In this document: positions 36,755 to 61,500 of the stretch, piece after piece
Position numbering within the stretch: position 1 is the stretch's first letter
Layout: the number at the start of each line of letters is the position of its first letter
DNA from: Candidatus Lindowbacteria bacterium RIFCSPLOWO2_12_FULL_62_27
GTDB lineage: Bacteria; Lindowbacteria; 2-12-FULL-62-27
Assembly: GCA_001784175.1 (NCBI GenBank)
Contig: MFPR01000019.1
Span: 1-64,000 of the forward strand
Length of the DNA stretch: 64,000 nucleotides
Reading direction: 5' to 3'
Notes under the pieces: generated by a model
The model's input: only the letters and a program-made list of their open reading frames with translations
The model's database searches: none
What the model was told of the DNA's origin: nothing
Translations under genes and position numbers: made by a program

Positions 36755-37614
36755 CACTCGACCCGCGCGCGCGGGAGGTTCTGCAAAGGATCGAGGGCAT
36801 TGCGGCCCTGCCGACCATCGCCCGCCGGGCGATCGACCTTCTGGACAACCCGCATTCGAACGTCGACCAGATCTGCGCCGTGGCCTCGGTCGACCCGGGC
36901 CTGGTGACGCTCCTTCTTCGCACCGTCAACTCCGCCTACTTCGGACTGCGCTCGCGCGTGACGTCGGTCAAGCACGCGCTGGTGATTCTGGGCATCGAAA
37001 AATTCCGCCGGCTGATCGTGGCCTCGGCCCTCATGCAGAAATTCCGGGGCGTGTCCAAGGCCGTCGACGAGGCCTTCTGGGACCACGCCCTGCACGCGGC
37101 CCAGTGGTCCAAGGAAATCGGCCGGCATCTGCGGCTCGACAACCCCGACGACCTGTACATCTGCGGCCTCATCCACAATACGGGCCATTTCGTGATCCTC
37201 CTGTATTTCAAATCCGAATCCAAGATCATCGAAGCCGCCGTCCGGTCCGGCGCGCCGCCGGTCCGGGCCGAAAAGGACATCCTGGGATGGACCCACGCCG
37301 AAATCGGCGCCTGGCTGTTTCACCACTGGAAAATGCCGGAAGAAATCATCGAAAGCGCCTTCTATCATCACCACGACCTGCGCCGCGTCAAACCCAAAAA
37401 AGACCTGCGCTCCTCAACCCTCGTCGTCCATCTCGCCGCCGCCCTCACCGACATCGATCCCGCGTCCGGCGCCTACGACTACGACGAGAAACTGGAAAAA
37501 ACCTTCCGGTCGCACGAGGGCCTGCTGGCCTTGCAGGACATCGACGCCGTCAAACTCTCAGACGAAGTCAGCGCCGCCTGCGAGGCGGTCAGAAAAATAT
37601 TTGCTAAGTCCTGA
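36751..37614 (+). CDS. HDOD-domain protein
   Basis: LP, DP.L...LL..VNSAYFG, FW.H, GL.H..G, E..LG..HAEIG..L...W..P. Confidence 0.9.
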   Translation: MTLDPRAREVLQRIEGIAALPTIARRAIDLLDNPHSNVDQICAVASVDPGLVTLLLRTVNSAYFGLRSRVTSVKHALVILGIEKFRRLIVASALMQKFRGVSKAVDEAFWDHALHAAQWSKEIGRHLRLDNPDDLYICGLIHNTGHFVILLYFKSESKIIEAAVRSGAPPVRAEKDILGWTHAEIGAWLFHHWKMPEEIIESAFYHHHDLRRVKPKKDLRSSTLVVHLAAALTDIDPASGAYDYDEKLEKTFRSHEGLLALQDIDAVKLSDEVSAACEAVRKIFAKS

Positions 37615-38269
37615 TAATCTCCGCGACCACCGTCCGGATTTTGCCGGTCATCCACTGGAGTTCCTGGTCGGTGAGCGCCAGCTTGGTTCCCTCGACGTTG
37701 ATCACCTCCAGCCGCCGGTTGATGGCGGCGACCAGCTCATGTGTCTCCAGGGTGCGTTTCAGGTCTTCACAGGCAACGCGAAAGGCCTCCGGATAACACT
37801 CGTGGAGAACGCACAAATCGTGGATGTCCGTCGGTTCGATCCGGTTCACGATGCAGCGCATTTTTTCAACGGCCATGTCCTCGGGGGACAGGACCGGCAG
37901 TTGCAGGTCCGGATCGATCAGAACGCTTAGAGGCCTCCATATCTTGCCGATGTCGACCTTGATCGGCTTTCCCGCGGTCGGGTACTCCACATAAATCTGG
38001 CAAAAATGCTCGCCCCGGCGCTCGACCCGGTGGCCGATCTTGTCTTTCTCGCAGGTCTGCACAAGCTCTCGCATGGCCCTGTAACTCGACACTTCTTCCT
38101 TTGGGCTGAACACATCGATATCCGTGCTGGTCCTCGCCTGCCGCGGATTTCGCAGCGTGAGCCATGTGCCGCCGCCCAGCGCGAAATTCTCGCGGATCAG
38201 CGGATGGGCCATCACCCATTGGGCAAGCGCCAGGACATCCTCGCGAAGAATGACGCGTTGTTCAGCCAT
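37604..38269 (-). CDS. AbiEii/AbiGii-family nucleotidyltransferase toxin
   Basis: LGGGT.L, R.S.DIDVF, K....R.E..D..DL; start MAEQ at 38269 overlaps the partner stop. Confidence 0.8.
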   Translation of the reverse strand: MAEQRVILREDVLALAQWVMAHPLIRENFALGGGTWLTLRNPRQARTSTDIDVFSPKEEVSSYRAMRELVQTCEKDKIGHRVERRGEHFCQIYVEYPTAGKPIKVDIGKIWRPLSVLIDPDLQLPVLSPEDMAVEKMRCIVNRIEPTDIHDLCVLHECYPEAFRVACEDLKRTLETHELVAAINRRLEVINVEGTKLALTDQELQWMTGKIRTVVAEIIRT

Positions 38270-38594
38270 AGAGACCTTCAACCAGTCCAAGGCGCGCGTT
38301 CCGTTCGAGGGCGGTGGGGGCGGACCGCGCAAATCGCAGGGCGGTTCGTCGGTTGAGCGCTTTGGGTATGAGTTGCGGGGCCCTCGTATACAGCACGCGG
38401 GCGATTTCCATGAGGGTCATCCGGCCCTCCTCCCTCCAGAAAATGGGCCTTAACTCCCTTGGGATATCGATTGCCCACCGGGTTCTTGCGGCCTCGACCG
38501 CCGCCGCCCGCTTGGCGGCGCTTCGGATCCCCTTGGTGGCCCTGCCTCCCAGCCTTCCCAGCGCCACGGCATGCGGGTTTTTTCGTCTTCTCAT
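38262..38594 (-). CDS. Putative antitoxin partner of the AbiEii-like toxin (basic KNP.AVALGRLGG N-terminus)
   Basis: Directly upstream of and overlapping the toxin; IP..LRPIFW motif; has its own promoter. Confidence 0.6.
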   Translation of the reverse strand: MRRRKNPHAVALGRLGGRATKGIRSAAKRAAAVEAARTRWAIDIPRELRPIFWREEGRMTLMEIARVLYTRAPQLIPKALNRRTALRFARSAPTALERNARLGLVEGLYG

Positions 38595-38909: not shown

Positions 38910-41900
38910 TTACCTCACAATCGCCAGCTTGTCCACGAATTTCGCCCCGCCGATTTCGAGAATGTAGATATAAACGCCGGACCCCACCCTCTGCCCGTGC
39001 CGGTCGGTCGTGTCCCATTTCAAGGTCGAGTTGGTTCCCGGCGCGCCCGCCTCTTTGAGTTCCTTCACCAGGCGTCCTCCAACGTCATAGATTTTCAGCG
39101 TCACCTCTCCGGCGGATTGTAGATTGTATTTGAATATCATGTTGCCCGCCGCGTCCGGCCCCGGGTTCGGAAAGACGAAGGTCCGATCCTTGCTGAAATT
39201 TGGCGCGAGAAGCGCCGATAGATAGTCCGCATATCCGACAGCCACCATCAACGTCACCGGCGACCGGTCGTCCGTGATCTGCAGGACCGCCGAGGAGGTT
39301 TGGGTCATGTCCACCGCCCCGTCCGGTCCGCCCACGAGAAACGCGCGATATTCCGGCGGCAGCGCGCCCGCATCCCACTTGAGCGTGACGGCGCCCGCCG
39401 GCCCGCGGACGCTGAGGGGCCAGAACGTCGCGGTCTTCACAGGCGCCGCGATGCTCGCGCCGTAATAATGAGCGGTTGGCGCGCCGCCGGGCGCCGCCGG
39501 ATCCTGCTGCATTCCCGACGCGTCTCCGACGAACACCTGCAAGTCTCCATACAGCCCGGGCGCTTTCCAGAGATCGTTCACGTCTTCGCCGTCGGCCGCG
39601 GCAGGCGCTACGCCGATGAAAGAGAACTCGTCCCGGATTTCGCTCTTCGATCCGTAGGCCATGAGACGCAGACGCCAGTTCGTCATGTCCCTCTCCATAT
39701 TCTTATACAAGGCCGCCTGGCGTTTTGAGTTTGCTGTTTGAGGCAGGCGCGGGTTGGGATAAAACACCAGCGTGCAGGCCTGGTTGACTTTGACCCACAT
39801 CCCAACCCACGGTTTGAGCTGCGCCGCCGTGTCGCCGCTTCCCATCGGATTGATGTACTGCTCCGCGCTCTGGTCCCGCCATTGCAAACGCGTGTCGATG
39901 ACCGACGCCGAATTCAACCCGCGCAGCAGGACCACGGGCGCCGTCCCGGACGGATCCGTATCCACGGCGACGTCATCCAGCCAGTCGATGAAATGCGTGA
40001 AAGGATTGCCGATCATGTTGGCCCCGGTCGCGAGCGGCAGGAGGAAGGTGTCCGGGTTCGGGATGGGTGAATCCGCCAGCCCGACGCCAGTCGCAACCGT
40101 GGACTTGAACCAGTACCCACGCCCGGCCGCATAGGAGTCGAATTCCCCATTGGCGGAATTGTTCGGCGCCGACTGACCGGCCACCGATTTATATCTGTCA
40201 AATGTGCCGTTCGCCGAGGCGATGGCGGGATCGTACCAGTAGGATGTCGCGGTTCCGCTGTAGGACAACTGTGAGAGCCCGGCCAAACGGGTGTCCGGAT
40301 GTTTGAACGGCGCGATGAGCGTCCACTTGTTTGCCGGCACATCCCGCCGGTCCGTATACGCCACGAGCGTGCCGTTCCCGCCGCCGGTGGATGCCGACGC
40401 CTTCACGATGTAGACCCCGTTCCCCGCGCCCAGTGTCAGCGTGCAGGCCAAGATGCCGTCCGCCGGCGTGATGGTGGTAGTCCCGGCCGTCACGGATGCG
40501 CCGCCGGCGGCGCCGCTTCCATTATAATCAATCGCGAACGTGACGGTTTCATTGGACACCGTATCGCCGGCGGCGTCATAGACGGCGATCGAAAACGGCG
40601 CCAATTGGCCCGCAGCGACGACTGGATGGTTGCCGCTGAATACCGCAACCGAATCTCCGGCAAGCCCGCCGCCCGTCATGGTCGCCGACGCCGTCACTGC
40701 GATGTATCGAGGAATGTCGATGTAAGTGACTTTGATGGAATCCCCGGGACGGACATAGAGCTTCCCGTCATTGCCGATGTTCGAGGCGCTGATCGACACG
40801 GCCACCGTGCCCTGAAAGGTCGACGAGTTCGCCGACTGTTCGCTCAGCACGACCGTTTCGATCTCGGTTCCCAAGGTGACATTCGTAATCGTCACGGCCG
40901 TGGTTTCGATGGCACCGGCATTGGCGTTGGGATCCGTGTCGTTGACCTCCACCACGATGCTGTCCATGGCGCGCGCCCGGTAGCTCGCCGCCGCCGGCCC
41001 GTTCGGTTGAATCAACCGCACGGCGCCGAAACTCACATTCGTATCGATCCGGAGGACGCGGACCGCGGACGGCGCACCGGTATTCCCTAGGCGGTCGATC
41101 GCCCGGATCCGCCAGGAATAGGTGTCGTTGTACAGACCGCTGACGGTGTCGGCCGTTCGGGAGCCGCCGACGGTGTCCGCAAAGACCAGCCCGGTGAACG
41201 CCGAACTCGTCGACACCTCCACAACGAAACTGTCGATCCCGACGCTGTCGGCGGGCGCAAGCCACGAAACCACCGGCCGGAACTGGCTCGTTTCATGGCC
41301 GTCCGCGGGCAGGAGGGCGCTGACCTGCCTCACGGACGTGTCCAGAATCAGAATGCGTCCGCTCGTCGTTTCATACGTGTTCGTGTCTCTCCCGATCACC
41401 CGCCAGTAGAAGGTGTCCTCGTGTGGAACGTCCCTGAGGATCGATGTGGATTTCGTGTCCACAATGCTGTCCACCAGACTTGTAAACGACGCGTTCTTGG
41501 ACAACTGCCACGTATACGTTTCAGCCTCCTGCGAAGACCACGCAAACCGAACCGTGGCCTGGCTGGTTTCATGTCCGCTCGCCGGCGCGACAAGGGCGAT
41601 TCCCAGGCCCGTATCAGCGACCGTCAGCGCCAGCGTTACGGTCTCCGCCGACGGCAACGACACCGCCGTTGAAGTTGCGCTGAGCAGAAGCGTGTCGGCC
41701 GACCCGTCGGCGGCGGCCGCCGGCGCCTGCACCAGCACGAGGACCACGGTTTCCGCAAGCTCTCGAAGAACGACGGTGCTCACGGGCGGATCGGAGGCGT
41801 CATAGACGCTGTCGCCATCCGCGTCCAGATACATCCCCCTCACAAAATTGGCGGTCGACTCGCCCCGGACCTGATAGGTGTCGTAGCCGTTGCCCAGATT

Positions 41901-42200
41901 CCGTATATGTTTGATGAAGACGTAGCTGTCCGCCGGCTGGATATCGGCGGTCTCAAGATTCGTCGCCACGTCCACCGCCGACAAGAGCGCCACCGTCTCG
42001 TAGGCGGTGTCCGTATAGACGGTCCGGCTGTCTCCAAACAACTGGCCGGTGGATCTCAGGAGCCATGTGTACTGGAATGAGGCCACGTTGGTCAGAAGCG
42101 TGTTCGCCGGCGTGTGCGTTTCGCCGTGGATCGCGGCCGCATGGGGCAGACCGGCGCCGAGACTCATGAGAACAAGAATGAGTGCGATCGTCCGTTTCAT
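38910..42200 (-). CDS. Secreted multi-domain protein: N-terminal T.A.T...N strand, Fn3 repeats, a repeat-B-like domain, and a C-terminal FlgD-Ig/T9SS-CTD-like domain (putative pilus anchor)
   Basis: Signal peptide from MKRTIALIL (42200); TPANTLLTNVASFQY; DADGD motif; C-terminal ~480 aa resemble the giant-1 C-terminus, both ending VDKLAIVR. Confidence 0.85.
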   Translation of the reverse strand: MKRTIALILVLMSLGAGLPHAAAIHGETHTPANTLLTNVASFQYTWLLRSTGQLFGDSRTVYTDTAYETVALLSAVDVATNLETADIQPADSYVFIKHIRNLGNGYDTYQVRGESTANFVRGMYLDADGDSVYDASDPPVSTVVLRELAETVVLVLVQAPAAAADGSADTLLLSATSTAVSLPSAETVTLALTVADTGLGIALVAPASGHETSQATVRFAWSSQEAETYTWQLSKNASFTSLVDSIVDTKSTSILRDVPHEDTFYWRVIGRDTNTYETTSGRILILDTSVRQVSALLPADGHETSQFRPVVSWLAPADSVGIDSFVVEVSTSSAFTGLVFADTVGGSRTADTVSGLYNDTYSWRIRAIDRLGNTGAPSAVRVLRIDTNVSFGAVRLIQPNGPAAASYRARAMDSIVVEVNDTDPNANAGAIETTAVTITNVTLGTEIETVVLSEQSANSSTFQGTVAVSISASNIGNDGKLYVRPGDSIKVTYIDIPRYIAVTASATMTGGGLAGDSVAVFSGNHPVVAAGQLAPFSIAVYDAAGDTVSNETVTFAIDYNGSGAAGGASVTAGTTTITPADGILACTLTLGAGNGVYIVKASASTGGGNGTLVAYTDRRDVPANKWTLIAPFKHPDTRLAGLSQLSYSGTATSYWYDPAIASANGTFDRYKSVAGQSAPNNSANGEFDSYAAGRGYWFKSTVATGVGLADSPIPNPDTFLLPLATGANMIGNPFTHFIDWLDDVAVDTDPSGTAPVVLLRGLNSASVIDTRLQWRDQSAEQYINPMGSGDTAAQLKPWVGMWVKVNQACTLVFYPNPRLPQTANSKRQAALYKNMERDMTNWRLRLMAYGSKSEIRDEFSFIGVAPAAADGEDVNDLWKAPGLYGDLQVFVGDASGMQQDPAAPGGAPTAHYYGASIAAPVKTATFWPLSVRGPAGAVTLKWDAGALPPEYRAFLVGGPDGAVDMTQTSSAVLQITDDRSPVTLMVAVGYADYLSALLAPNFSKDRTFVFPNPGPDAAGNMIFKYNLQSAGEVTLKIYDVGGRLVKELKEAGAPGTNSTLKWDTTDRHGQRVGSGVYIYILEIGGAKFVDKLAIVR

Positions 42201-42528
42201 GATCGGTCTTCGGGCGCAGTCTCTCCCCGCCGGGTTGCGAGACTCGCAATCCGTCATCGAAACTACACGCGTCATGATGAACTTGCCCTCCGCCCTGTGC
42301 TCCACGGGTGGAGGATGGTCCCGTACACGAACATCCATAATAAGTGCGCTCGCTCTACTCCAGAGCGTTCGTCGCCTCCTATCTTCGGTTCCCTCGGCGC
42401 GCGCCTGCGTCCTCATGGATGGGCGCGCCTGAAGGTCTTCCGCTCGGGCGGTGATTTCCGCCCATCAGAAACTCGTTCCCGCTACACGCTCCTTCCTCGC
42501 AGTTCCGCCGCGGCGCTTCGTCTTCCGC

Positions 42529-43743
42529 TTACTGAATGACCACCCGGTACGCCACGCGCCCGTTGTCGTAGACGCCGTCCGCGAAATTGACCATCCCCTT
42601 CGCGTCGCCGTTGTTCTCGCCCAAGTTCGTCTCCAGCGACCACCGGATCGCGCGCACCTGCTGGTTCACGCCCGTCGTCGGCGCCGTGTCCGACTGGTGA
42701 CCCTCCGTGTCCTTGAAGTCCAGCTCGGTCCCCGGCGCGTCCGTGTCGAACGTCACCGTGATGTCCGAATCCCCGTACGCCGTCGCCGTCTGGTTCGAGT
42801 TCCCCAGGTAAATCCCGCTGTCCGCCGAATTGCGCACATACCGCGTGTTGGTCGGAATCGCGTCCATCAGCTCGCAACCGCGCGCCGTGTCGCCGCCGTC
42901 GTTGTCGAACGTGATGTTGATGATGAGCGTGTCGCCCGGCCGGGACCGGCCCGACGTCTCCTCGGACATCGTCTTGTCCACAAACACGTTCGGCGCCAAG
43001 ACCGTCGTCACCGTCGTGTCGTACTGCGTGTCCCGCTCATTCGACACCGCTCCCACCGGAACGCTGTCCTGCCACCCGTCGCCCGACGTGCCGCCGTTGC
43101 CGACCGGCGCGCGGTTCGTGACCAGAATGAACGCCGCCGTCGTTTCGTTGTCGTTGGCGTCCGTCGGAATCAGCACCACCAAAACCACCGTGTCAGACGC
43201 CCCGGCCGCCAACTGGATGAAGTTGCTCGCGCCCTGGTAGGCGCCGATAATCGTGTCGCCGTTGTCCCAGCCGCCGTCGTTGTCCGAATCCGTGTACACC
43301 TTGTAACTGCCCGTGATGTTCCAGTTTGTGCTCCCGGCGCTCGGCCCCGAATCCCCCTGGCTCGACGGATGTCCCGCCGAGTCGAAATAGATCCGCATCG
43401 TCGCGTTCCCTTCGTTCTTCACGTAGTACGGGTAGCTCGCCGTATCTCCAGCGGCCCACCGCGTGTCCGCGGGCGTCCCGATATTCGCGAGGTCGTATCC
43501 CGTGTCCACCGAAATCTGCGCCACGCTCGTGGGTCCCCGGAAGGCCGAATCGCTGCTGCCGGACGACCTCATGTACGAGACCGACACCTCGCCGCGCGCC
43601 TGCGGCTCCGTGTCGCCTGTCACAAACACGCCGTTCGTGATGCTGTCCGTACTCGCCGTCCCGGCTGCCATGGCGGTCCCCGCCATGAGACCGATCAGCG
43701 CCAGTGCCATCGTTAAAACCAAACCTTTCTTCAATCCGTTCAT
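42529..43743 (-). CDS. DUF11-domain secreted protein, 404 aa (putative major shaft pilin)
   Basis: AAAGGAGG RBS before MNGLKK; signal peptide ending AMA-AGT; DSDNDG Ca-binding-like loop; VDKT..RPGDTL.INITFDNDG..A....MDAIP.NTRYV. Confidence 0.85.
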   Translation of the reverse strand: MNGLKKGLVLTMALALIGLMAGTAMAAGTASTDSITNGVFVTGDTEPQARGEVSVSYMRSSGSSDSAFRGPTSVAQISVDTGYDLANIGTPADTRWAAGDTASYPYYVKNEGNATMRIYFDSAGHPSSQGDSGPSAGSTNWNITGSYKVYTDSDNDGGWDNGDTIIGAYQGASNFIQLAAGASDTVVLVVLIPTDANDNETTAAFILVTNRAPVGNGGTSGDGWQDSVPVGAVSNERDTQYDTTVTTVLAPNVFVDKTMSEETSGRSRPGDTLIINITFDNDGGDTARGCELMDAIPTNTRYVRNSADSGIYLGNSNQTATAYGDSDITVTFDTDAPGTELDFKDTEGHQSDTAPTTGVNQQVRAIRWSLETNLGENNGDAKGMVNFADGVYDNGRVAYRVVIQ

Positions 43744-43813
43744 CTCAGTGCCTCCTTTGGCTTTGTTCCCGTCCAACTTCCCTTCATCTATGCTCATGTC
43801 CTCGTGTCACCCA

Positions 43814-45028
43814 TCACTCAATGACGACGCGGTAGGCCACGCGCCCGTTGTCGTAGTCGCCGTTGTTGAAATTCACGGTCCCCTTCGCGTCCCCGTTGTT
43901 CTCTCCCAGCGGCGTCTCCAGCGACCACCGGATCGCGCGCACGGTCTGGTTCGGGCCCGTCGTCGGCGCCGTGTCCGACTGATGGCCCTCCGTGTCCTTG
44001 AAGTCCATCTCCGCGCCCGGCGCGTCCGTGTCGAACGTCACCGTGATGTCCGAATCCCCGTACGACGTGGCCGTCTGGTTCGAATTGCCCAGATAGATCC
44101 CGCTGTCCGCGGAGTTGCGGACGTACCGGGTGTTGTTCGGGATCGCGTCCATGATCTCGACCCCGCGCGCCGTGTCGCCGCCGTCGTTGTCGAACGTGAT
44201 GTTGATGACCAGCGTGTCGCCCGGCCGGGACCGGCCCGGTGTCTCCTCGGACATCGTCTTGTCCAAAAACACGTTCGGGCCGACCACCGTCGTCACCGTC
44301 GTGTCGTACTGCGTGTCCCGCTCCGTGCCCGTGTACGGCACGCTGTCCTGCCAGCCGTCGCCGGTCGTCGAGCCGTTCCCGACCGGCGCGCGGTTCGTCA
44401 CCAAAAGAAACGCCGTCGTCGTCTCTCCGTCGTTCGCGTCGCCCGGGATCGCCACCACGAGAACCATGGTGTCCGACGCATCCGGCGCAAGCTGGATGTA
44501 GTTGGCGGCGCCCTGGTAGGGCCCGATGATCGTGTCGCCGTTGTCCCAGCTCCCGTCGTTGTCCGAATCGGTGTACACCTTGTAACTGCCCGGGATGCTC
44601 CAGTTCGCGCTTCCCGCCGCCGGGCCCGAATCGCCCTGGCTCGCCGGATGCCCCGCCGAGTCGAAATAGATGCGGAGGGTCGCGTTGCCGGTATTCTTGA
44701 TCCAGTAGCCGTAACTGACCGTGTCGCCGATCGCCGCGCGCGAGTCCGGCGGCGTGCCGATCAGCGCCATGTCGTAGCCCGTGTCGACCGTGACGCTCAC
44801 GCCCGCGGAGGTGAAACCGGAGTAGATGGAATCCGGAACGCTGGCTGAAATCTGGTAGGCCACGGACAGCCGGCCCGCGGCCTGCGGAACGGTATCGCCC
44901 GGCGTGAATACCCCGTTCGTAATGGTGGTCTGGCTCGACGTGCCGGCGCCCCGGGCCGGGATGGCGAGCGCTGCCCACACGAGAAGCGCCGCCATCCACC
45001 TCACTGCGGAAGCAGGCCGGATCGTCAT
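43814..45028 (-). CDS. DUF11-domain secreted protein, 404 aa, tandem paralog of 42529-43743
   Basis: Start MTIRPAS at 45028, coupled to the upstream stop; signal ARG-AGT; highly similar mature sequence. Confidence 0.85.
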   Translation of the reverse strand: MTIRPASAVRWMAALLVWAALAIPARGAGTSSQTTITNGVFTPGDTVPQAAGRLSVAYQISASVPDSIYSGFTSAGVSVTVDTGYDMALIGTPPDSRAAIGDTVSYGYWIKNTGNATLRIYFDSAGHPASQGDSGPAAGSANWSIPGSYKVYTDSDNDGSWDNGDTIIGPYQGAANYIQLAPDASDTMVLVVAIPGDANDGETTTAFLLVTNRAPVGNGSTTGDGWQDSVPYTGTERDTQYDTTVTTVVGPNVFLDKTMSEETPGRSRPGDTLVINITFDNDGGDTARGVEIMDAIPNNTRYVRNSADSGIYLGNSNQTATSYGDSDITVTFDTDAPGAEMDFKDTEGHQSDTAPTTGPNQTVRAIRWSLETPLGENNGDAKGTVNFNNGDYDNGRVAYRVVIE

Positions 45029-46161
45029 TATTTGACTATAATCTTCAAGGTTAAGGTGTCCGAAGGTGTCGCCGTACTCGGATCCATGCGGTTGTTCCGC
45101 GTGAATCGGACCATCGTGGCCGAGTCGGCCATCGGCGTCTGCCAGACGTCCTCGCCTCCGCCGCCCGTGACGCGATACTCGATGCTCCACCCGCTCTGCG
45201 CGCTCGCCGCCGTGGACGAATCCGCGAAGACGGTATTGGCCGGAAGATAATCGTAGACGACAACGCCCTTGGCGGGCGCATAGCCGTTGTTCCGCACGGT
45301 GATGCTGTAGACCACCGTGTCGCCGGGCCGGGGCCGGCCGGTCGGCGCGCTGGAATCGGCCGACACCGCCTTGACCACATCCACATTCGGCGCCGACCAC
45401 AACGCCGACGAGTCGCTCAAATTCCCGTGGGTGTCCGACGCCACCACATAATAGAATTGACTATCCCCCTGGGATGCAGTTGTGTCGAGACAACCCCGCG
45501 TGTCCACAAGGAGGCTTGCGTTGATGCGCGAGGACAAACGGCTGTCGGTTGTCGCCGACCGGAACACGTGGTAGCCGGACGAGTCCGGCGCGGCCGACGT
45601 GTTCCAAGTCACATAAACGCCGGTCTCCGCCCCGCTCAGATTGGCCACGGCCTGTACTCCGGTCACGAGCGCGGGTTTCTCGTTGTCGATCCCGATATTC
45701 TGCGTCGTGTCCGCCGGCCCGGTTCCCGACGCGTCGGCCACCGCAATCCGCAGTTGAACTCTTGATGTGATCGTATCCGGCAGGTCGGTCTTCGACAACC
45801 ACACAACAGTTTTCGTGTCCCCCAGGGTGGGACAATAAAGGTTTGATATAACCGATGTTCCGCTCAACGTCGCCGTCAGCCAGGTGCTTCCGCTGTCCTT
45901 GCTGAACTCCACCGTCGCGGTGCAAAAGTCGCTGTCTGCGTCTATCGCCAGAAACTGTACAGTGACTGCCGCGGAATAGGTCTCCCCATCAACTGGATTG
46001 AGAATCGTGTCGTAGGGTTGAACGGCGAGTGCGGAGGGACACGGAAGAAACAGTGATGCGACAGCGCCCGTGACGGCCCCAATCCCCGCGCGGAGGAAGT
46101 ATCGGAACAGACCGTTCAAGAAAACATGGCGCCGAGTGGTATCTATTTGGTACTCAGACAT
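45028..46161 (-). CDS. Secreted Ig/Fn3 + C-terminal DUF11 protein (putative tip subunit)
   Basis: Signal-like N-terminus; Ig and Fn3 motifs; VVKAV..RPGDTVVYSITVRNNG..A..V.VYDYLPANT.F. Confidence 0.8.
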   Translation of the reverse strand: MSEYQIDTTRRHVFLNGLFRYFLRAGIGAVTGAVASLFLPCPSALAVQPYDTILNPVDGETYSAAVTVQFLAIDADSDFCTATVEFSKDSGSTWLTATLSGTSVISNLYCPTLGDTKTVVWLSKTDLPDTITSRVQLRIAVADASGTGPADTTQNIGIDNEKPALVTGVQAVANLSGAETGVYVTWNTSAAPDSSGYHVFRSATTDSRLSSRINASLLVDTRGCLDTTASQGDSQFYYVVASDTHGNLSDSSALWSAPNVDVVKAVSADSSAPTGRPRPGDTVVYSITVRNNGYAPAKGVVVYDYLPANTVFADSSTAASAQSGWSIEYRVTGGGGEDVWQTPMADSATMVRFTRNNRMDPSTATPSDTLTLKIIVK

Positions 46162-46392: not shown

Positions 46393-47124
46393 CTACCCCT
46401 CGAAATGTTTCCCCAATTCCTCCCGCCCGGCCTTGGTGACGGCCCGGACAAGTTTCGGAACGGCCGTCTCCATCCACCGCCGGTGCGCGCGGGTGAGTCG
46501 GACTTTCCCCGCCGGTCCCTCTTCGGTTTCGAGACAGCGATTGATGTAAACCAGGAGGGCGTTGGCCTCCATGCTGGCGATGAGCCGGGCGAGCGCCTTG
46601 TCGAATTCGTCTGGGAATTGTTCGTGGAGCACGCATAGGTCGTACAGATCGGTGGGTTCAATGCGATCAACGACGCACTGGAGTTTCTCCGATACCATTT
46701 CCAGAGGGGAAGGACGTTGTATCCGTGCGACGCCATACAGTTCGTCCATCATGGCCTGTCGGGCAATTTTTTGCAGTCGGGTTTTCGAGGCATTGACGAA
46801 TTTCCGGCAAGCCTCGCGGGAAACGGTCGCCGGCAACAGCGCCGGCAGGCGTGTCGAAATGGTTTTGGCGCGGTCCGCGGCCGACATGCGGCCGGGGCGT
46901 TCTCTCCAGAGAATGGCGCCGGCAAGACGCCGGTCGAGCGGCGGCCGGCCGGGCCGGTACTGTTTCCTGATTTCCACGAATTGCGCAACGGACTCCCGAG
47001 GAATGAGCCATGTCCGCCCTTTGAGCGCGGCGCCCTGAATTCTCCCTTGCCTGCAATATTTGGCGACGAGTTCCTCTGAAACGCCAATGACCTTGGCGGC
47101 GTCCGGGCCGGTCAGGATATCCAT
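46393..47124 (-). CDS. Excisionase-type HTH fused to an AbiE antitoxin-like region and an AbiEii C-terminal helical domain (NTase domain absent)
   Basis: AA..IGVS...V..YCRQGRI....G..WLIP; C-terminal part similar to the C-terminus of 37604-38269 (EK..C..RIEPTD..DLCVLHE). Confidence 0.75.
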   Translation of the reverse strand: MDILTGPDAAKVIGVSEELVAKYCRQGRIQGAALKGRTWLIPRESVAQFVEIRKQYRPGRPPLDRRLAGAILWRERPGRMSAADRAKTISTRLPALLPATVSREACRKFVNASKTRLQKIARQAMMDELYGVARIQRPSPLEMVSEKLQCVVDRIEPTDLYDLCVLHEQFPDEFDKALARLIASMEANALLVYINRCLETEEGPAGKVRLTRAHRRWMETAVPKLVRAVTKAGREELGKHFEG

Positions 47125-52397: not shown

Positions 52398-52532
52398 GAA
52401 ACAATTTCACACGAATGAACACGAATGTCCGAGCACGAATGAGCACGAATTTTTTTATGGTTTAAACTTCGAAAATCTCTTATTCGTGGGCGTTCGTGTT
52501 CCATATTCGTGTCCATTCGTGTCAAATGTTTC
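52398..52532. repeat. Long imperfect hairpin with 9-bp periodic arms (CACGAAT / ATTCGTG) just upstream of the giant-gene start
   Basis: gaaacaatttcacacgaatgaacacgaat...attcgtgtccattcgtgtcaaatgtttc. Confidence 0.85.
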
Positions 52533-52559
52533 CTCTGTTTACCAACCGGGTACGAGCTT

Positions 52560-55500
52560 ATGTTGACCCCCCGCCCGATTCTGTCCCGGTTCCTGGTTTC
52601 CGGATTCGCGATCCTCTCCCTCGCCCTCCTCGCGCCACAGCCGGCGATCGGGAAGATGATGTCGGATTCGATTGTGATTTTTGAAGTCTCTGTTGGGGCC
52701 GGAGCTGTGGCAGATGAGTACATGACGCTGTACAATCCCACGCCGGACTCCAAAGGATTGACGGCGTATCGCATGACACGGGCAACTGCAACGATGGCGA
52801 CTATGAGCGTCATTACGTCGAGAATTGACAGTACTGTTGCAGACACGATTGGCCCTTTTGGATTTTACCGGCTGGTTTCAGTGGGCGCCAATGCCGTTCT
52901 TCGAGGAACAGCAGACAGCGTGTCAAGCACGGCCACCTTGGCCGCGGACAATCAGATAATGCTTGGCCAAGCCACTTCGAACACAAACTATACGGACAGT
53001 AGAGATCGGCTGGGGTGGGGTGCCGTCACTACTCGAAAGTTTACTGAAACGCAGGCGGTGACAGACACTACACCCGGCAATCCGCCAGCCGGCAAGGCGC
53101 TCTATCGTTTTCCGGGCAAGATTGCCGGGGGCATGATCGACCGACAACGAAACGGATTTGATTTTGATACGGCTTTGGTCACGGATACGTTCAACACAGG
53201 GACGCGCCACCGCCGCGTTGTATTTTCATGCACGACGCCGACCAAGGCGGTGCGGGTCGGATTGGCATTCAACCTCTACTGTACGGCCACCGTCGTATAT
53301 GGCGACACCTACTGGATACAGGACACGAACGTGGTCGCCTCCTATAGCGGAGATTCCGCGTGGGCGGATCTGACCGGATGGGGGAAGGACACGCTGGTGG
53401 TGGACAGTTCGGGCGACACGGCGGACACAACGGGGATATTCAGGAACGGGCTTTGTACAATGACGCTGCGGTTTACACCCTTTGCTCGCATCGCCGACAC
53501 GGTTCGGATTGTGGCTTCGGACGCCTATTGTACAGGCTTCATCATTTTGCGCGTTTTCGACTCGCCGACCGCTGATCTTCCCGCGATTGGCCATGAGACG
53601 AACGTGATTGATTTTCTTGTTAGGTGGACCATGTCGGACAGCTCGGGATTCGACAGTTACGAAATCGAGGTGTCAAAGAGCGTTGGCTTCTCGAGCATCG
53701 CCTTTGCCGACACCATCGACATCACGCAGACCAGCGACACGATCACGGGATTGTACAACGACACGTACTATTGGCGCGTGCGGTTCATCGACAATTTCGG
53801 CGTACGCGGGAACTGGTCGGAGACGCGGTCGTTTGTGACGGACACCCTCATCGGCGCGCCGACGGCCTCGTATCCCGCGGACGCGCATGAGACGACGTCA
53901 TCGTCCGTGGTCGTCGGCTGGACGCAGGTGTCGTCCGACAGCGTGGGGATCGACAGTTACGCGGTTGAGGCGTCGACCAATGCGGGGTTCACGGCGATGG
54001 TCTTGACGGACACCGTCGACGGCACGCGCGACAACGACACGGTGACGGCGGCGACGGAGGCCACCTACTCCTGGCGTGTCCGCGCGATCGACGATCTGGG
54101 CAATGGCGGGTCGTATTCAACGACGAGGACATTTGTGCGGACATCGGCGTCGGCGTCGCCGACGCCGAGCGTGAAGGTCGACGGCGACAGTTCGGACTGG
54201 GTGGGGACGCGGTCGAGCACCGTTCACGACACGGTCATATCGCTGGGCGAGTGGATATATTCAGGCGACCCGAATGATGTGCGGGGGGAAGGCACGGACC
54301 CCGACGAGAATTACGACATCACGGAGGCGCGGCTGTCAGGCGATACGCTTCATCTTTTCATGCTCGTCGTCATGGAGGGCATCTCCTCCAACACACTGCC
54401 GTTTGTGGGTCTGTCGGTCGACGTGGATCAAGTTTCCTACGGCATGGACTGGGCCCTGGCGGACGACGGCATGGCGAACGGCTACCCGTCCTCCGACAGA
54501 TATTCCGAAACCAATGTGAGTTTCCATAGGGTGTCCGGCTCAGACACAATCGAGATGTTCGAGGCCAGCGGGTCGTGGGGCGGAAATTGGTGGCATTCTC
54601 CAGTCGCCACGCCCCGTGCCGCGGATTCGATATCGATCAGCACGACGAACGAGGTTGTGGAGGCGGCGCTTCGCTGGGAAGATCTCAGCGTGACGCTGCC
54701 CAAACGGCTCAAATTCGTGCTGGCCAGCGCCGAAAACGACGGCACCTCGTGCGACAACGACGGCACGGTGGACAGAGCCGATGCCGACATCCTTGACGTC
54801 GTCACGCCGTATTACTCCGGCTCGGCGAGTTCATGGACGCGCGACATCATCGACGATGAATACGATTACTCGTTCGTTGTCAACTTCAACAAAAACGGCA
54901 AAGTCAATCACCCGCCGGACACCCCGACTTTGAGCTCTCCGGCGGACGGCACGATTTACACGTCCGCCACCACCGTGACGATGTCGTGGACCCTGAACGA
55001 CGCGACGGCCGACGTCTCCAAGGACTCGATGGTCCATATCCAGATCGGCACCAACTCGGACTCGAACGACGTGCTGGACACGAAGATCCATGGCGCCGAC
55101 CTCGATCTGGACTTCCGGTTCTGGATGGAGGACACCTACTACTGGCGCATCCGCCATGCCGACGATTTCAACACGTCGCCGTGGACGAAGTCCCGGCAAT
55201 TCGGGATACAGCTTTCGGCCACGACCGGGTTCGCCGTGGACGGCGACACGTCGGAGTGGACCGGGACGCCCTCATCGACGGCGCATGACACGGCGATCTC
55301 GAACGGCGAGTTCATCTACACCGGCGTCGCCTACGACATGCGGACCGACCCGGACATCTGGACGGATTCCAACTACGACATCACACAGGTGCGGTTTTCC
55401 GGAGACACGAACCATCTCTACCTCATGGTGGCGATCTCGGTATTGAGCGACCGCCGCGCGCCGCACATTGCGTTCAATGTGGACCTCGATCAGCTTTCGG

Positions 55501-58500
55501 GCGATGGTTCGCTCGACTGGATCGGCCCGGACGACGGCGCGACCCTTGCGGGCACCACGCAGTACGGCGAGACAAACGTTTCTCTGCACGTCGCCGGCCG
55601 GGGGACTTCGTACGACTCGGCCACCTATCCCGAAATCGAGATGTTCGCGCAGGACTGGACGAGCTGGCATTCTCCGTCGGCCGGGTCGTACGATTCGGTG
55701 GCGATCAGCAACGCGAACAACGTGATCGAAGCGGGATTTCGGTGGCCGGACATCATCGGCGGCGGCGGAACGCTTCCGAAGAAAATCCGGATCGCGCTGG
55801 CCTCCTACAGCAACAACACGTCATGGAACAGCAACAGCGCCGCGACGCATGACGTTACGGGATCGGCCGACGCGATGGACAACATCCGGCCGTATGCCGG
55901 CACCACCTGCGCCGCCTGTCCCGCTTCTTGGGACTGGGACCTCGTCGACGCCGATTATGACACGTCGGTCACGATCGAATTCAACAGGACCGGCCGCGTG
56001 AACCATATTCCCGGCCAGCCGTCCGTGTACTCTCCCGCGAACGGTTCATCTTTCTCGGAAGCGGACAATCTCATCACCCTGCAATGGTCGATCAACGACG
56101 CGGACAGTTGGACCGCGCTGGACTCGGCCGTCTTCGTGCAGGTCACCAACCGCCGCGGCATCTTGATTCTGGACACCGAACTCGTCGGCCCCGACGCCGA
56201 TCTCGTCTACCGGTTCCCGGCCGGCGACAGCTTCTACTGGCGTGTGCGGCACTCGGACGATTTCGAAACCTCGCCCTGGTCGGACAGCGGCTATTTCTCC
56301 GTCAGCGACACGATTGACATCAAGACCCCGGTGGACGCGACGGGCGGGACGCAAGAGACGACCAACGCGACGGTGACGCTGACCGGATACGCCGGTTCGA
56401 GCGACACGACGTCCGACACAGTGCAGGTCACGGTGAACGGCGCCGAGACGACCGTGATGTTTCTATCGAGCGCCGGCGTGTGGTCCTGTTCGGCGACGCT
56501 GGCCGACCGTGCCGGCGAATCGGTCATCATCCGGCTGTTCAACAACGGCGTGCAGACGGCGAACGACACGATCAACCTGTTCTATGACGCGACGAAACCG
56601 CGGATCACCAAAATCTCCGACTCGTCCCTGCGGGACGCTTCGAGCGCCAGTGTGAGCGACACGGTGTTTTTCTACATCTTCGACACCGGCGTCGGATTCG
56701 GCGGCGACGGCGGCTGTACGTTGTACTGGCACATCGACAGCGGCGCGAACACGAACTGGTCCGTCGCGACGGAGAGCAGTTCCAGCCCGTCCGGCACGAC
56801 GACGATCGAGGCGATGATTCCGGTCAGCACATTCAATCCGCTGGTCGACACGCAGGTGGGATTCTGGTGGATTTGCCGGGACGACCTCGGGAACCTCATG
56901 GATTCGACTTCGCTGTCCCCCAGTTACCTGGATGTGAGACCCGGCACATTCACAGTCGAGGTCGTCGGCGTCCGGGACATCGTGATCAACGAAATCATGT
57001 GGGGCGGCAGTGGGGGAGAATACATTGAATTGCGGAATATGACGGGCGTGGCCATCCGACTTACGAACTGGGTCCTGAAGGACCTCGCAAGTGACCCGAC
57101 AAGCATGTTCGCCTTCCAATCTGCGGACAGCATCCCGGCCTACGGGTTTTTCCTGGCATTGGATTCGGGTGCGATTGACGACACGAGCAGTCATGCCACC
57201 AGGTTTCCACGGACCAACTCGGCCCTCACTTTGACCAATACTGGAGACTCGATATCGCTGGTCTCCGATGGCGGTCTCGATATTGACTCCGCATGGTTCA
57301 ACGGCGGCTGGCCCGCCGGTTCCGCGACGGGCGACGGCACTTCGATGGAGCGCAAGCCTTCTCCCGGCTACGGCAACGCGTCCTCGGACTGGGACGACTG
57401 CACCACGACTCTTTATCCGGGCACGGGCGGCCGGACCACCGGCACGCCCGGGCACCGCAACACGAACGTGGACAGTGTGACGTTCAGCGTGGTCTCTTCC
57501 GGCGGCACGTATGAAACGAACGCGACGGGGATCACGCTGACCGGCTTCTGCTCCTTGCAGTCCGGAGATTCCGTTTGGATTTTCATCAGCAACACCGCGG
57601 CCGAATCGACGGTTCTCACCAGCGGCGGCGTCTGGAGCGTGTCCGGCATCGATCTTTCGGGCACGAAGCGCGGGGAGAGCATCGCGATCTACACGTTCGA
57701 TGACAGCGTCTATGCCCGATCCGACACGATCACCATCGTCTATGACGCGGTCGTGAGTCAGGTGAGCCTCTCGGCCCCGGCGACCGGCCACGAGACGACA
57801 TCGATCAGCGTGGTGTTGAGCTGGAGCGCGGTGTCGGACACCGTGGACATCGACAGCTACGCGTTGGAGGTGTCGAAGAACACGGACTTCACGAACATGG
57901 TTTTCACGGACACCCTCGACGGCACGCGGACGAACGACACCTCGACGGGTCTTTACAACGACACGTACTACTGGCGAGTGCGCGCGATCGACGATCTGGG
58001 CAACGGCGGCCCGTATTCGGACACGCGCGGATTCGTGACGGACACGATCGTGGGCGCCCCGACGTTGTCGCAGCCGTCGGACGGGCACGAGACGACCTCG
58101 ATCAGCGTGGTGGTGAGCTGGAGCCTGTCCGACAGCGTTGGGATCGACAGCTTCGCGGTGGAGGCGTCGAAGAATACGGCCTTCACAAACATCGCCTTCA
58201 CGGACACGATCGACGGCTCGCGGACGAACGACACGGTGACAGGTCTGTACAACGACACGTACTACTGGCGCGTGCGCGCGATCGACGATCTGGGCAATCG
58301 CGGCCCGTATTCGGACACGCGCGGATTCGTGACGGACACCCTGGTCGGCACGCCGGCGGCCTCGTATCCGGCGGAAGCGCATGAGACGACCGTGACATCC
58401 GTGGTGGTCGGCTGGTCGGCCGTGTCGTCGGACAGCGTGGGGATCGACAGTTACGCGGTGGAGGTGTCGAGGAACGGGGCCTTCACGGAGATGGCGCTGA

Positions 58501-61500
58501 CGGACACGATCGACGGCACGCGGACGAACGACACGGTGTCGGCGTCGACCCCGGCCACCTACTCCTGGCGTGTGCGCGCGATCGACGATCTGGGCAACTC
58601 CGGCGCCTATTCGTCCACGGCGACGTTCGTCCGGACGGTGACCCAGAGCATCACCATCGATGGAGACAGCAATGATTGGCCGGGCACGCCGTCGACGACC
58701 GCTCATGACACGGTGATTTCAAGCGGGGTGTTCATCTACACGGGCGTGGCGGGCGACGAGCGAACGGAGGTGAACGACTGGTCGGACCTCAATTACGACA
58801 TCACCCAGGTCCGTTTCTTCGGCGACACCAATTTCTTCTATGTCCTGGTCGTCATGCAGGACATCACCGACAGCCGCGGCCCGTACGTCGGCCTTGGAAT
58901 CGACAAGGATTCCGCGACCTCGGACGGCGACCTGAACTGGATCGCGGACGAGGACGGCCTGACCGTCGCGGGCGCCAACCACGATCCGGAGTCGTCCGTC
59001 CGGCTGTCCGTGGCGGGCCGGTCGAACGGAAGCGCTCCGGAAATCGAGATCACCGACGAGGCGGCCGGCCTCGGTTCGTGGCAAGCTCCGACGAATTCGG
59101 GCGGGCACGCGGCGACCGCGTACGAATCCGTCGCGATCAGCGTCTCCAACAACGTGATCGAGGCGGCCCTCCAGTGGAAGGATCTCAGCGTCACACTCCC
59201 GGCCAGACTGAACTTGACCCTGGCTGCGTACAGCAACACGACTCCGGCGGACTGGGCCAACAACAACGACGCCACCGCAGACAACGGCGCCATCGACGGC
59301 GCCGACGTGATGACGCCCTATTGCACGAACGGCGACAACGCCTGGGGCCGGGATTTATCGGACGCCGACTTCGACAGTTTCGTGACCGTCGGTTTCAACA
59401 AGACCGGCCAGGTCAACTATCGGCCCTTCGTGCCGACGCAGGACACGCCGGGGAATCTGTATGTATTCACAGAATCGAACAACTCGATCACGTTGCAGTG
59501 GCAGATCAGCGACGCCGACAGCAACGTGGCCAAGGATTCGATGGCCCAAATTCAGGTGACGACCGGCACGGGCCGGACGGTTCTGGACACGAAGATTCAA
59601 GGCTGGGACCCCGACCTCGTTTACAGGTTCCTGTCGGGCGACAGTTATTACTGGCGTGTCCGGTACGCGGACGATTTCGAGACAACGACGTGGACGGACA
59701 GCCTCGTGTTCAGGGTGTCGGACACGATCGACATCAAGACGCCGGTGGACGCGACGGGCGGGACGCATGAGACGACGACGCAGGTGGTGGTGTTGACGGG
59801 TTATGCCGGCTCAGGCGATACGACAACCGACACGGTGCAGGTCACGGTGAACGGGGCCGAGACGACCGTCATGTTTTTATCGAGCGCCGGCGTGTGGTCC
59901 TGTTCGGCGACGTTGCGGGACCTCGCGGGTGAATCAGTGATCGTCCGGTTGTTCAACAACGGCATTCAGACCGCCAACGACACGATCAATCTGTTTTACG
60001 ACGCGACGCCCCCGCGGATCACCCGAATCGGCGACACGTCCGTGCGGAACGACTCGACGGTTCGCGGGTCGTCGGACACGATCTTTTTCTATGTGTTTGA
60101 CACCGGCGTCGGATTCGGCAGCGCCGGCGGCTGTACGCTGTACTGGCACGCCGACACGGGCACGAACATCAACTGGGTGGTCGCGTCGGAGAGCAGTTCC
60201 AGTCCGTCGGGCACGACGACGATCGAAGCGATGATCCCGGCCGCCACTTGGAGCCCGTCCGTGGACACGGATATTGGTTTTTGGTGGGTGTGCCGGGACG
60301 ATCTGGGCAACACGATGGACTCGACGTCGCTGTCGCCCAGCTACATCGAGTCGCGGCCGGGAACCTACACGGTCGACGTCCTCACCGTGGGCGACGTGGT
60401 CATCAACGAAATCATGTGGGGCGGCCGGTCCGGTTCCGGCGAATACATCGAGCTTCGAAACGCGTCGAGCCTGGCCGTCAGTTTGACGAACTGGGTTTTG
60501 CGCGACAAGGGCGGCGGGTCGAGCGGATTTTCGATCACCTTTCAAAGCGCGGACAGCATCCCGGCCGGCGGATTTTTTCTGGTGATGGATTCCGGCGCGA
60601 TCGACGACACAAGCAGCCACTACGTCCGTTTCCCTCCGAAGACCGGCGGCATCGCGTTGACGGACGGCGGCGACTCGATCGAGTTGCTCACCGACGTCGG
60701 CGCCGAGATGGACTCGGCCGTTTTCACAAGCGGCTGGCCGGCAGGCTCTGCAACAGGGGACGGCAAGTCGATGGACCGCACGCCGACGCCGGGCTACGGG
60801 AACACTTCGACGAACTGGGAGAACGGCTGGGACAGCGCAGCCGACGGCGGCCGGGCGAACGGTTCGCCCGGACACCGCAACCCGAACGCGTCGCCGTATG
60901 TGACGGTCTCTCCGGATTCGACGCCGGCGGCGACGGGCGGCCGCGGGGTGTGGACATTCACGTTCACGAACGGCCAGACGGCGTTTACGAGCGGCCGGCT
61001 TGTGATGCAGATCGACACCGGCGGGTCGACCGACCAGACCAACAACTGGACCCAGCCGCAGACGTCGACGTCGTCTTCGCCCGGCTATGTCACCACGAGC
61101 GTGTCGAACGGCACGCTGGGCACGGTCACGACATCCGGCGATTCCGTCATCATCGACGTGACGTCTCTCACGGCGACCACCGGCCAGATCACGATCACGT
61201 ACGGAAGCGTCACGGCCAACACCGGGGGCGCCGCCAAAGTCCGGACGACCACCGGCCGGGCCTATTTCCGTTTTTATTATGATGAGGACAGCACCGTCAC
61301 CGCGCCCGTGCGGGACACGGCCGAGGTGACGATCCCGATCGTTTCGCTGTCCGGCGGATCGTTCGCGGACACCGACCCGGCCTCCAACCCGCAGAGTTTT
61401 ATCGGTTCGGAATACGCCGTGACCATCAAGGTCAAGGACTCGAACAACAACGCGGTGCACGCCGCCCATGTCTGGGCCACGCTGCCGGCCGACGGCGCCG

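Follow-up and report, generated by a model that had tools for sequence, protein, structure and literature searches.

In the engineered SpyTag/SpyCatcher system, the CnaB2 domain is split into one strand and a remainder, which rejoin and bond spontaneously through Lys, Asp, and Glu. The DUF11 domain, renamed CLIPPER, was described as a nine-strand CnaA-like sandwich (structure 9IFR), in which an internal isopeptide bond links Lys715 of the first strand to Asn806, Asp748 is adjacent, and one further strand closes the domain after the Asn strand (PMC12617251); the accessible text of that paper describes no intermolecular CLIPPER. Strand insertion combined with an intermolecular isopeptide bond that forms by itself is a known class of mechanism, and the CLIPPER fold with its internal bond is known as well. 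According to the accessible parts of the two sources, BsaA of Clostridium perfringens, a member of the TasA family, assembles by 'donor-strand exchange and lock' with an N-E-K triad (bioRxiv 10.1101/2024.11.04.621531), and the archaeal thread protein Saci_0406 combines donor-strand complementation by its N-terminal tail with proposed intermolecular isopeptide bonds (PMC9715654). A full-text literature search, in which most sources were available at the abstract level, yielded no description of a split or intermolecular DUF11/CLIPPER domain. Here, we report a cluster of four genes, designated A to D, from Candidatus Lindowbacteria bacterium RIFCSPLOWO2_12_FULL_62_27. The cluster is located within the first 64,000 nucleotides of contig MFPR01000019.1 (assembly GCA_001784175.1), and this whole stretch is hereafter called the window. 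The products are an acceptor-only protein A ('tip'), two donor-plus-acceptor proteins B and C ('shafts'), and a donor-only protein D ('anchor'), where the acceptor is a C-terminal DUF11/CLIPPER domain and the donor is a strand at the mature N-terminus. The reading that best fits sequence and synteny is that a DUF11/CLIPPER domain of CnaA-like fold has been split in nature and would be completed in trans and covalently locked; a probability of about 0.5 was assigned to it.

Compared with the described CLIPPER, the acceptor domains belong to the same family and carry the first-strand Lys and the catalytic Asp, with a spacing between the two of +37 in the shafts (K257 to D294) versus +33/+34. In CLIPPER, the Asn strand is part of the same chain and the bond is internal, whereas here the chain ends earlier, and it is the N-terminus of the neighbouring protein that best matches the Asn strand. 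As in BsaA, a disordered N-terminal strand would enter the next subunit, and an Asn-acid-Lys triad would form an intermolecular isopeptide bond spontaneously, with no sortase; the residues are conserved here and may lie close together in space. BsaA differs in its fold and family and in its acid, which is Glu instead of the Asp found here; moreover, the present source organism is a diderm, and its locus encodes separate tip, adaptor, and anchor proteins together with a C-terminal sorting domain. No TasA/BsaA-type match was obtained for A–D in Pfam or NCBIfam, and no SipW-type gene was seen within the cluster. The archaeal thread resembles the studied proteins in having conserved first residues directly after the signal peptidase site, but its bond links the amino group of the N-terminus with an Asn at a distance of two subunits, and it has an unrelated fold, an archaeal origin, and a single subunit type. 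Whereas the CnaB split of SpyTag/SpyCatcher is man-made, the present one would be natural and would affect a CnaA-like fold. The combination of tip, adaptor, major subunit, and base in one cluster is reminiscent of sortase-dependent and chaperone-usher pili; unlike them, the present system has no sortase, usher, or LPXTG motif. Type V pili (FimA/Mfa1) were not matched either, as there is no Cys at the cleavage sites (AMA/AGT and ARG/AGT) and no such Pfam match.

If the split-domain reading is correct, archaeal threads and clostridial BsaA would be joined by a third natural case of strand insertion with a self-made isopeptide bond. No earlier case would have had the CnaA-like CLIPPER fold, and none would have come from a diderm whose tip, adaptor, shaft, and anchor are separate proteins. 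Covalent surface polymers would then be possible without a sortase or usher, and new orthogonal protein-ligation pairs would become available for biotechnology. It may also explain how very large adhesins are made piecewise. The family is rare, occurring in three of the four genomes of a small uncultured phylum, with few full-length relatives in the library searched.

Architecture and synteny of the cluster

All four genes are located on the minus strand. Gene A (45028–46161) encodes a protein of 377 amino acids (aa) with a signal peptide, an Ig/fn3-like region, and the acceptor domain (45031–45399, approximately residues 255–377), which contains the Lys in VVK, the Asp in YDYLP, and a terminal LKIIVK segment abutting the stop codon. 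The stop codon of A and the ATG of B overlap by one base. Genes B (43814–45028) and C (42529–43743) encode 404-aa paralogs with 75% identity, which start after the signal peptide with AGTSSQTTITNG and AGTASTDSITNG, respectively. The donor segment of B (44843–44947, residues 28–62) comprises AGTSSQTTITNGVF, a Pro-containing loop, and GRLSVAYQIS, and includes Asn38; that of C (43561–43665, residues 27–61) begins with AGTASTDSITNGVF. The acceptor domain of B (43817–44320, residues 237–404) includes K257 and D294 and ends in RVAYRVVIE, and that of C (42532–43035) is 89% identical to it. Both proteins carry FLDKT/FVDKT and DAIP, and a weak DUF7507 match was found in their middle part using Pfam/NCBIfam. 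Gene D (38910–42200) encodes 1096 aa without an acceptor. Its donor segment HGETHTPANTLLTNVASFQY (42066–42131) follows the signal peptide and precedes a homologue of the shaft middle domain and fn3-like repeats, and the protein closes with a sorting domain (38919–39176) of the type IX secretion system (T9SS) type A/FlgD_ig-like kind. The gap between C and D is 330 nt long, and no minus-strand terminator was detected in it by a promoter/terminator scan. The starts of A, B, C, and D were judged by eye to be Sec-type signal peptides. A ribosome-binding site, AAAGGAGG (43751–43758), was read from the sequence 7 nt upstream of the ATG of C. These data agree with a preliminary description of this DNA, which had placed four open reading frames at these coordinates and had recognized in them two 404-aa paralogs with a DUF11-type C-terminal domain, a first-strand Lys, and a D.IP Asp (borne out by Pfam/TIGRFAM and the motifs), a protein at 45028–46161 with the C-terminal DUF11 domain alone (VVKAV, YDYLP, LKIIVK end, and no donor motif), a protein at 38910–42200 with an N-terminal donor strand and a T9SS/FlgD-like C-terminus, and the strongest ribosome-binding site on the likely major subunit.

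The strongest evidence for the split-domain reading is the architecture of these proteins and their synteny. The fn3-plus-acceptor module of A is also found at the end of two giant proteins of the same genome, one encoded from window position 52509 to position 69071 of the window's contig (C19; open frame of 5542 aa) and the other at C23:789–7316 (2175 aa), both of them acceptor-only. Donor-only proteins with a sorting domain are D, the product of C23:10088–20533, and a protein of locus L045. The recurrent order starts with an acceptor-only protein, optionally followed by one of about 390 aa that combines fn3 and F5/8 type C domains, and continues with one or two shafts and then a D-like protein. 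It is complete in the window, on C23 (L010), in a groundwater genome (L011), and in a third genome (L044). Two other loci, L009 at the end of C19 and L012, are cut after the shafts, and L045 begins at a shaft followed by a D-like protein with the donor LTVDNTAS and a sorting domain. In total, the architecture recurs in six loci beyond the window in three genomes, so the succession of acceptor-only, donor-plus-acceptor, and donor-only proteins holds in the synteny check that the preliminary description had called for. Donors and acceptors are balanced in the complete loci, three and three in the window. The scans of the collection returned two loci in genome_contigs and five in metagenome_contigs, two of these lying on the window's own contig, and the shaft gene was present in three of the four genomes of the phylum in the collection, the source genome included. 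Across the seven loci, Lys and Asp occur in each acceptor examined, and each donor carries either Asn or Asp. Homology between the N-terminal module of D-like proteins and the middle domain of the shafts was found by hhalign (probability of 96.7%, E 4.4e-10).

In the proposed mechanism, the C-termini of A, B, and C would comprise strands one to seven of the domain, with the Lys that forms the bond (K257 in B) and the Asp that catalyses it (D294), and the Asn-bearing strand would instead be located at the mature N-termini of B and C (GT..ITNG) and of D. We infer that, after Sec export, the N-terminal strand would enter the open domain of the protein encoded one gene earlier, where Lys and Asn (Asp in some D-like proteins) would react spontaneously to give a covalent chain, the lock probably being a Lys-Asn/Asp isopeptide bond. 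The chain would run from A, the distal adhesive end, through B as an adaptor and one or many copies of C to D, which through its sorting domain would hold the assembly at the outer membrane. Its product would be either a polymer or a defined A-B-C-D chain, the present data being compatible with both.

The preliminary description had presented B and C as two shaft subunits. They are indeed two paralogous donor-acceptor proteins, but the differences between them are concentrated in the donor region and recur across genomes, a pattern that fits an adaptor and a major subunit. The donor region (residues 28–92) shows 67–88% identity within the second-gene type (C, P0006, and P0009), 63–74% within the first-gene type (B, P0002, and P0007), and 51–60% between the types. 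The identity of the acceptor domains is 89% (B–C) and 75% (P0007–P0009) within a genome and 51–54% between the two genomes. An ancient split between B and C was considered and rejected because the two shafts of one genome pair together in a quick tree, and only the N-terminal region groups by gene position. The grouping of the donor region by gene position across genomes fits the roles of tip, adaptor, major subunit, and terminator-anchor, B being of the first-position shaft type (likely adaptor) and C of the second-position type (likely major subunit). The strong ribosome-binding site on C agrees with the latter role. From these comparisons, we infer three donor types (B-, C-, and D-type) and two acceptor types (tip and shaft).

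Conserved residues and register of the proposed split domain

Pfam DUF11 (PF01345) matched A, B, and C with 38.9, 34.2, and 24.5 bits, respectively, the score of C being just below the cut-off of 24.6, and TIGR01451 matched them with 46.1, 39.8, and 27.5 bits, all above the cut-off of 24. These DUF11/TIGR01451 matches span only profile positions 4–67 of 114, i.e., the first half. A sequence search with B against an index of 5.8 billion proteins returned 24 proteins at E ≤ 0.001. Among the best 150 matches of an exhaustive search of 1.84 billion representatives, 20 were full-length single-stretch relatives of 331–453 aa, and the other 130 had at least 698 aa and several matching stretches each; most of these 130 were tandem DUF11 proteins of more than 1000 aa that matched mainly via the first half of the DUF11 domain.

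In a MAFFT alignment of 37 relatives of B (A3; N-terminus present in 36 rows), the residues K257 (VDKT; 37/37), P269, D271, T272, N281, and G283 were invariant, and G29, T30, D294 (DAIP), F343, and D345 were conserved in at least 90% of sequences. The check on Lys and Asp conservation suggested in the preliminary description thus gave 37 of 37 for K257 and at least 90% for D294. No Asn was among the invariant or at least 90% conserved columns after D294, and all members of the alignment terminate at one column, with RVxI followed by one residue and the stop. An alignment of eight domains from tips and shafts showed no variation (8/8) in the Lys, RPGDT motif, and Asp, and every one of these domains ends on the same strand. 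At the donor end, Asn38 of the ITNG motif occurred in 33 of the 36 rows with an N-terminus, whereas the corresponding position of D-like proteins is occupied by Asn in two and by Asp in three of five. The donor Asn expected from the preliminary description therefore holds for the B/C type, and Asp replaces it in the majority of D-like proteins.

To define the register, a canonical repeat consensus was built from 338 DUF11 units of 116 of the long proteins (...itKt...PGDtlTYTItvtNtG...vvtDtLP...tVTWniGtL..GasvtvTFtVtV......GTvItNtAtv...). The units contain the Lys in 309/333, the Asp in 334/338, and the Asn in 322/334 cases, with spacings of Lys+34 to Asp and Lys+89 to Asn, similar to 9IFR. The shaft segments were slid along this consensus in an ungapped profile-to-profile comparison with a z value for each offset. 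The top offsets placed the A strand of the shafts on canonical columns 1–12 (z 4.9), the B strand on 15–30 (z 6.3), the C strand on 35–50 (z 6.6), the IRW strand on 60–69, which is the Trp strand (z 4.6), and the last strand, DNGRVxFRVVIx, on columns 74–85, the strand preceding the Asn strand (z 3.82). Residues 33–42 of the mature N-terminus had their top offset on columns 91–100 (GTVITNTATV, the Asn strand; z 3.67), residues 29–42 were placed on columns 87–100 (z 3.3), and the N-termini of D-like proteins matched best on columns 90–101, also the Asn strand (z 4.18). The shaft segments and the N-terminus are therefore colinear with one canonical domain, which puts the chain break in the loop before the Asn strand. 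By this best match, the strand absent from the C-terminal domain appears to be carried by the N-terminus of the next protein.

In two long relatives, P0103 and P0142, a unit is repeated in which a CBM-like domain is joined with a middle domain of the shaft kind and a Lys-less DUF11. The motif following their DUF11 (DDTVNDFDG) also occurs at the mature N-terminus (EDSVNDYDG) and may belong to DUF11 or to the next domain. These embedded shaft-like units do not decide the register because the Lys is absent.

An AlphaFold2 model of monomeric B had a mean predicted local distance difference test (pLDDT) value of 61.8, with the middle and C-terminal domains modelled. Residues 21–83 were unplaced, with pLDDT below 50 and no strand, though they are among the best conserved parts. 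The domain-only model had a mean pLDDT of 57.7. Complex prediction with two copies of mature B (residues 28–404) gave a score of 0.00 in both runs, which speaks neither for nor against assembly. A sequence search of solved structures with the domain alone gave one match, 8wac (E 0.067), judged to be due to chance, and none was found with profile A2. Foldseek with the full model returned only generic tandem Ig matches (integrin, complement).

Weighing of alternative explanations

Several results weigh against the split-domain reading. In the profile slide, the last strand of tip-type proteins had its top offset on the B strand (z 4.06), and the pre-Asn strand came second (z 3.44). An eight-column scan for the Asn-strand motif was non-discriminating, with the N-terminus on top in only 5 of 37 sequences and most top matches in the xIxNxGNAT loop of the middle domain. 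Local hhalign against the canonical profile, run separately with the whole mature protein, its N-terminal region, and its C-terminal domain, aligned only the first half of the domain (probability of 98–99), and the N-terminus did not align to the Asn strand (probability of 0.4). Forced/global hhalign gave a rival register in which the domain would be complete, with a low confidence of 0–1; forced runs with paralogs from a cluster of distant relatives on contig C28 aligned only the core. The absence of the Asn strand claimed in the preliminary description is supported by the ungapped slide and not by local or forced hhalign. Among the shaft relatives, P0014, P0022, and P0153 are without Asn38 yet retain the Lys, and three plus-strand paralogs on C28 (555–576 aa) keep an IING motif but seem to be Lys-less. 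Fused forms with a donor after an acceptor were sought among the longer proteins, and one unrelated match was found, which is weak evidence. Finally, A, B, and C carry no sorting domain of their own that would take them across the outer membrane.

The forced register, which has all strands, would suit the assumption that the C-terminal domain is a complete divergent DUF11, with a K257–D345 bond or none, that the N-terminal segment serves its own N-terminal part, and that the genes encode four separate surface proteins. We regard this as rather unlikely. D345 is a possible internal partner, being at least 90% conserved and lying 88 residues after K257, near the canonical Lys-Asn spacing; tip-type acceptors, however, have Thr/Ser at this position yet keep the Lys and the Asp. 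About eight strands are visible in the C-terminal domain of the AlphaFold2 models, and the domain-only model was superposed on 9IFR (VIA, rank 42) with a Z of 5.6, a root-mean-square deviation of 2.3, and 88 aligned residues, chain 21–109 corresponding to model 15–168; this superposition was not used because it seems to be one strand out of register. Neither the FxD segment nor ITVTFD fits a canonical strand well (z < 3) or falls on the Asn strand, whereas the segment assigned to the Asn strand in the forced register is variable and is deleted in P0097, P0117, P0147, and P0168. A complete domain also leaves unexplained why acceptor-only and donor-only proteins occur in a fixed order in three genomes.

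The same architecture and register evidence would apply if the strand were inserted in trans without a covalent bond, by donor-strand complementation as in chaperone-usher/TasA fibres, with the Lys and the Asp serving for packing or ion binding. The Asp in three of five D-like donors and the three shaft relatives without Asn38 are in line with this, as is the oligomer of BsaA N35A, which in the accessible text is stable in the buffer and on the gel of sodium dodecyl sulfate electrophoresis (SDS-PAGE) and depolymerised only upon heating at 95 °C (bioRxiv 10.1101/2024.11.04.621531). We nevertheless hold a bond-free insertion to be improbable: the Lys is kept in 37 of 37 and the Asp in at least 90% of relatives, whereas bond-less DUF11 domains do not keep these positions, as reported in the accessible text of PMC12617251, and Asn or Asp, both known bond partners, occurs in every donor of the seven loci. 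A tail of about 55 residues could also reach back, so that the N-terminal strand of each shaft would fold into its own C-terminal domain and give a closed monomer, with only A and D in need of a partner. Such closure in cis is highly improbable, since the tail is not docked on its own chain in the AlphaFold2 monomer, and proteins with an acceptor alone (A and the giants) or a donor alone (D) need partners in trans regardless. Furthermore, the canonical Asn strand leads into the next tandem domain, an arrangement resembling a tail that continues into the middle domain of a following subunit and not one that folds back.

Secretion, giant proteins, and neighbouring genes

The C-terminal end of D was assigned by TIGR04183 with 29.6 bits (cut-off 23), while PF18962 and PF13860 (FlgD_ig) gave 22.7 and 25.7 bits, respectively, both below 27. 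No sortase was matched in the 94% complete genome, the positive controls being matched in three cases, and no usher was matched in it either, with a positive E. coli control. There is no LPXTG motif, the C-termini being RVVIE/Q and IIVK. The independence of sortase and usher expected from the start is hence supported genome-wide. The sorting domain is present on at least 32 open reading frames of the genome, many of them giants, and the open frames with this domain reach 22286, 10454, 9114, and 8313 aa. Concerning the secretion machinery, a single SprA-like match of 69.9 bits (below the cut-off of 200) and 16 weak PorV-like matches (best of 70.5 bits, cut-off 250) were found, and PorU was matched through its C-terminal domain part only, its body being unmatched. 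GldL, GldM, and SprA_N had no match in the genome, but the controls were equally silent, and absence is therefore not shown. As for the export of A, B, and C, it may be speculated that ligation would take place in the periplasm and that the covalent chain would then leave via the sorting domain of D.

It is conceivable, though doubtful, that giant adhesins are built from separately encoded modules, with tips reaching about 5500 aa, one or more shaft units, and anchors ranging from 1100 to more than 7200 aa, which would be ligated after export by split CLIPPER domains into one nearly linear covalent chain with a single sorting domain, exported or displayed as a unit. If so, the modules could be mixed, one genome having three tip-type acceptors, at least five shafts, and several anchors, and they would constitute a natural combinatorial SpyTag/SpyCatcher-like system and a new class of pilus/adhesin assembly in diderms.

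A second locus extends on the plus strand of the window from 52509 to 64000 and further to C19:69071, and then over C19:69068–71993 (L009). It contains the 5542-aa giant with an A-type acceptor, a 424-aa protein with fn3 and F5/8 type C domains, and two shafts, a B-type one (82% identity to B) and a C-type one that is truncated where the contig stops. The opposite terminus of the contig is taken up by a plus-strand open frame (window 1–21603) with a length of at least 7200 aa, which extends beyond the contig start and finishes with a D-type sorting domain; its lost N-terminus could carry a donor, and the protein may be the anchor of the second locus. It is followed on the plus strand by genes for an Alginate_exp-like outer-membrane barrel (21600–23090; 34.8 bits) and a FecR-domain protein (22970–24289; 36.8 bits).

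The cluster of distant relatives at C28:195720–215828 encodes proteins whose ends are all RIRF.VVI(K/R). Its plus strand comprises four proteins of 490–576 aa with an IING-type N-terminal motif, neighboured by a sorting-domain protein (201399–205028) and a PorV-like gene. Its minus strand encodes two proteins that retain the Lys, one acceptor-only (731 aa) and the other donor-plus-acceptor (403 aa).

Within the window, cluster A–D is flanked by two AbiEii-family genes on the minus strand, at 37604–38332 (69.7 bits) and 46393–47124 (27.3 bits), the latter also having an HTH_17 domain. Between 46 and 54 kb of the window, the G+C content drops from about 0.63 to 0.55–0.585. The stretch with the AbiEii genes and the lowered G+C content may be mobile or recently rearranged.

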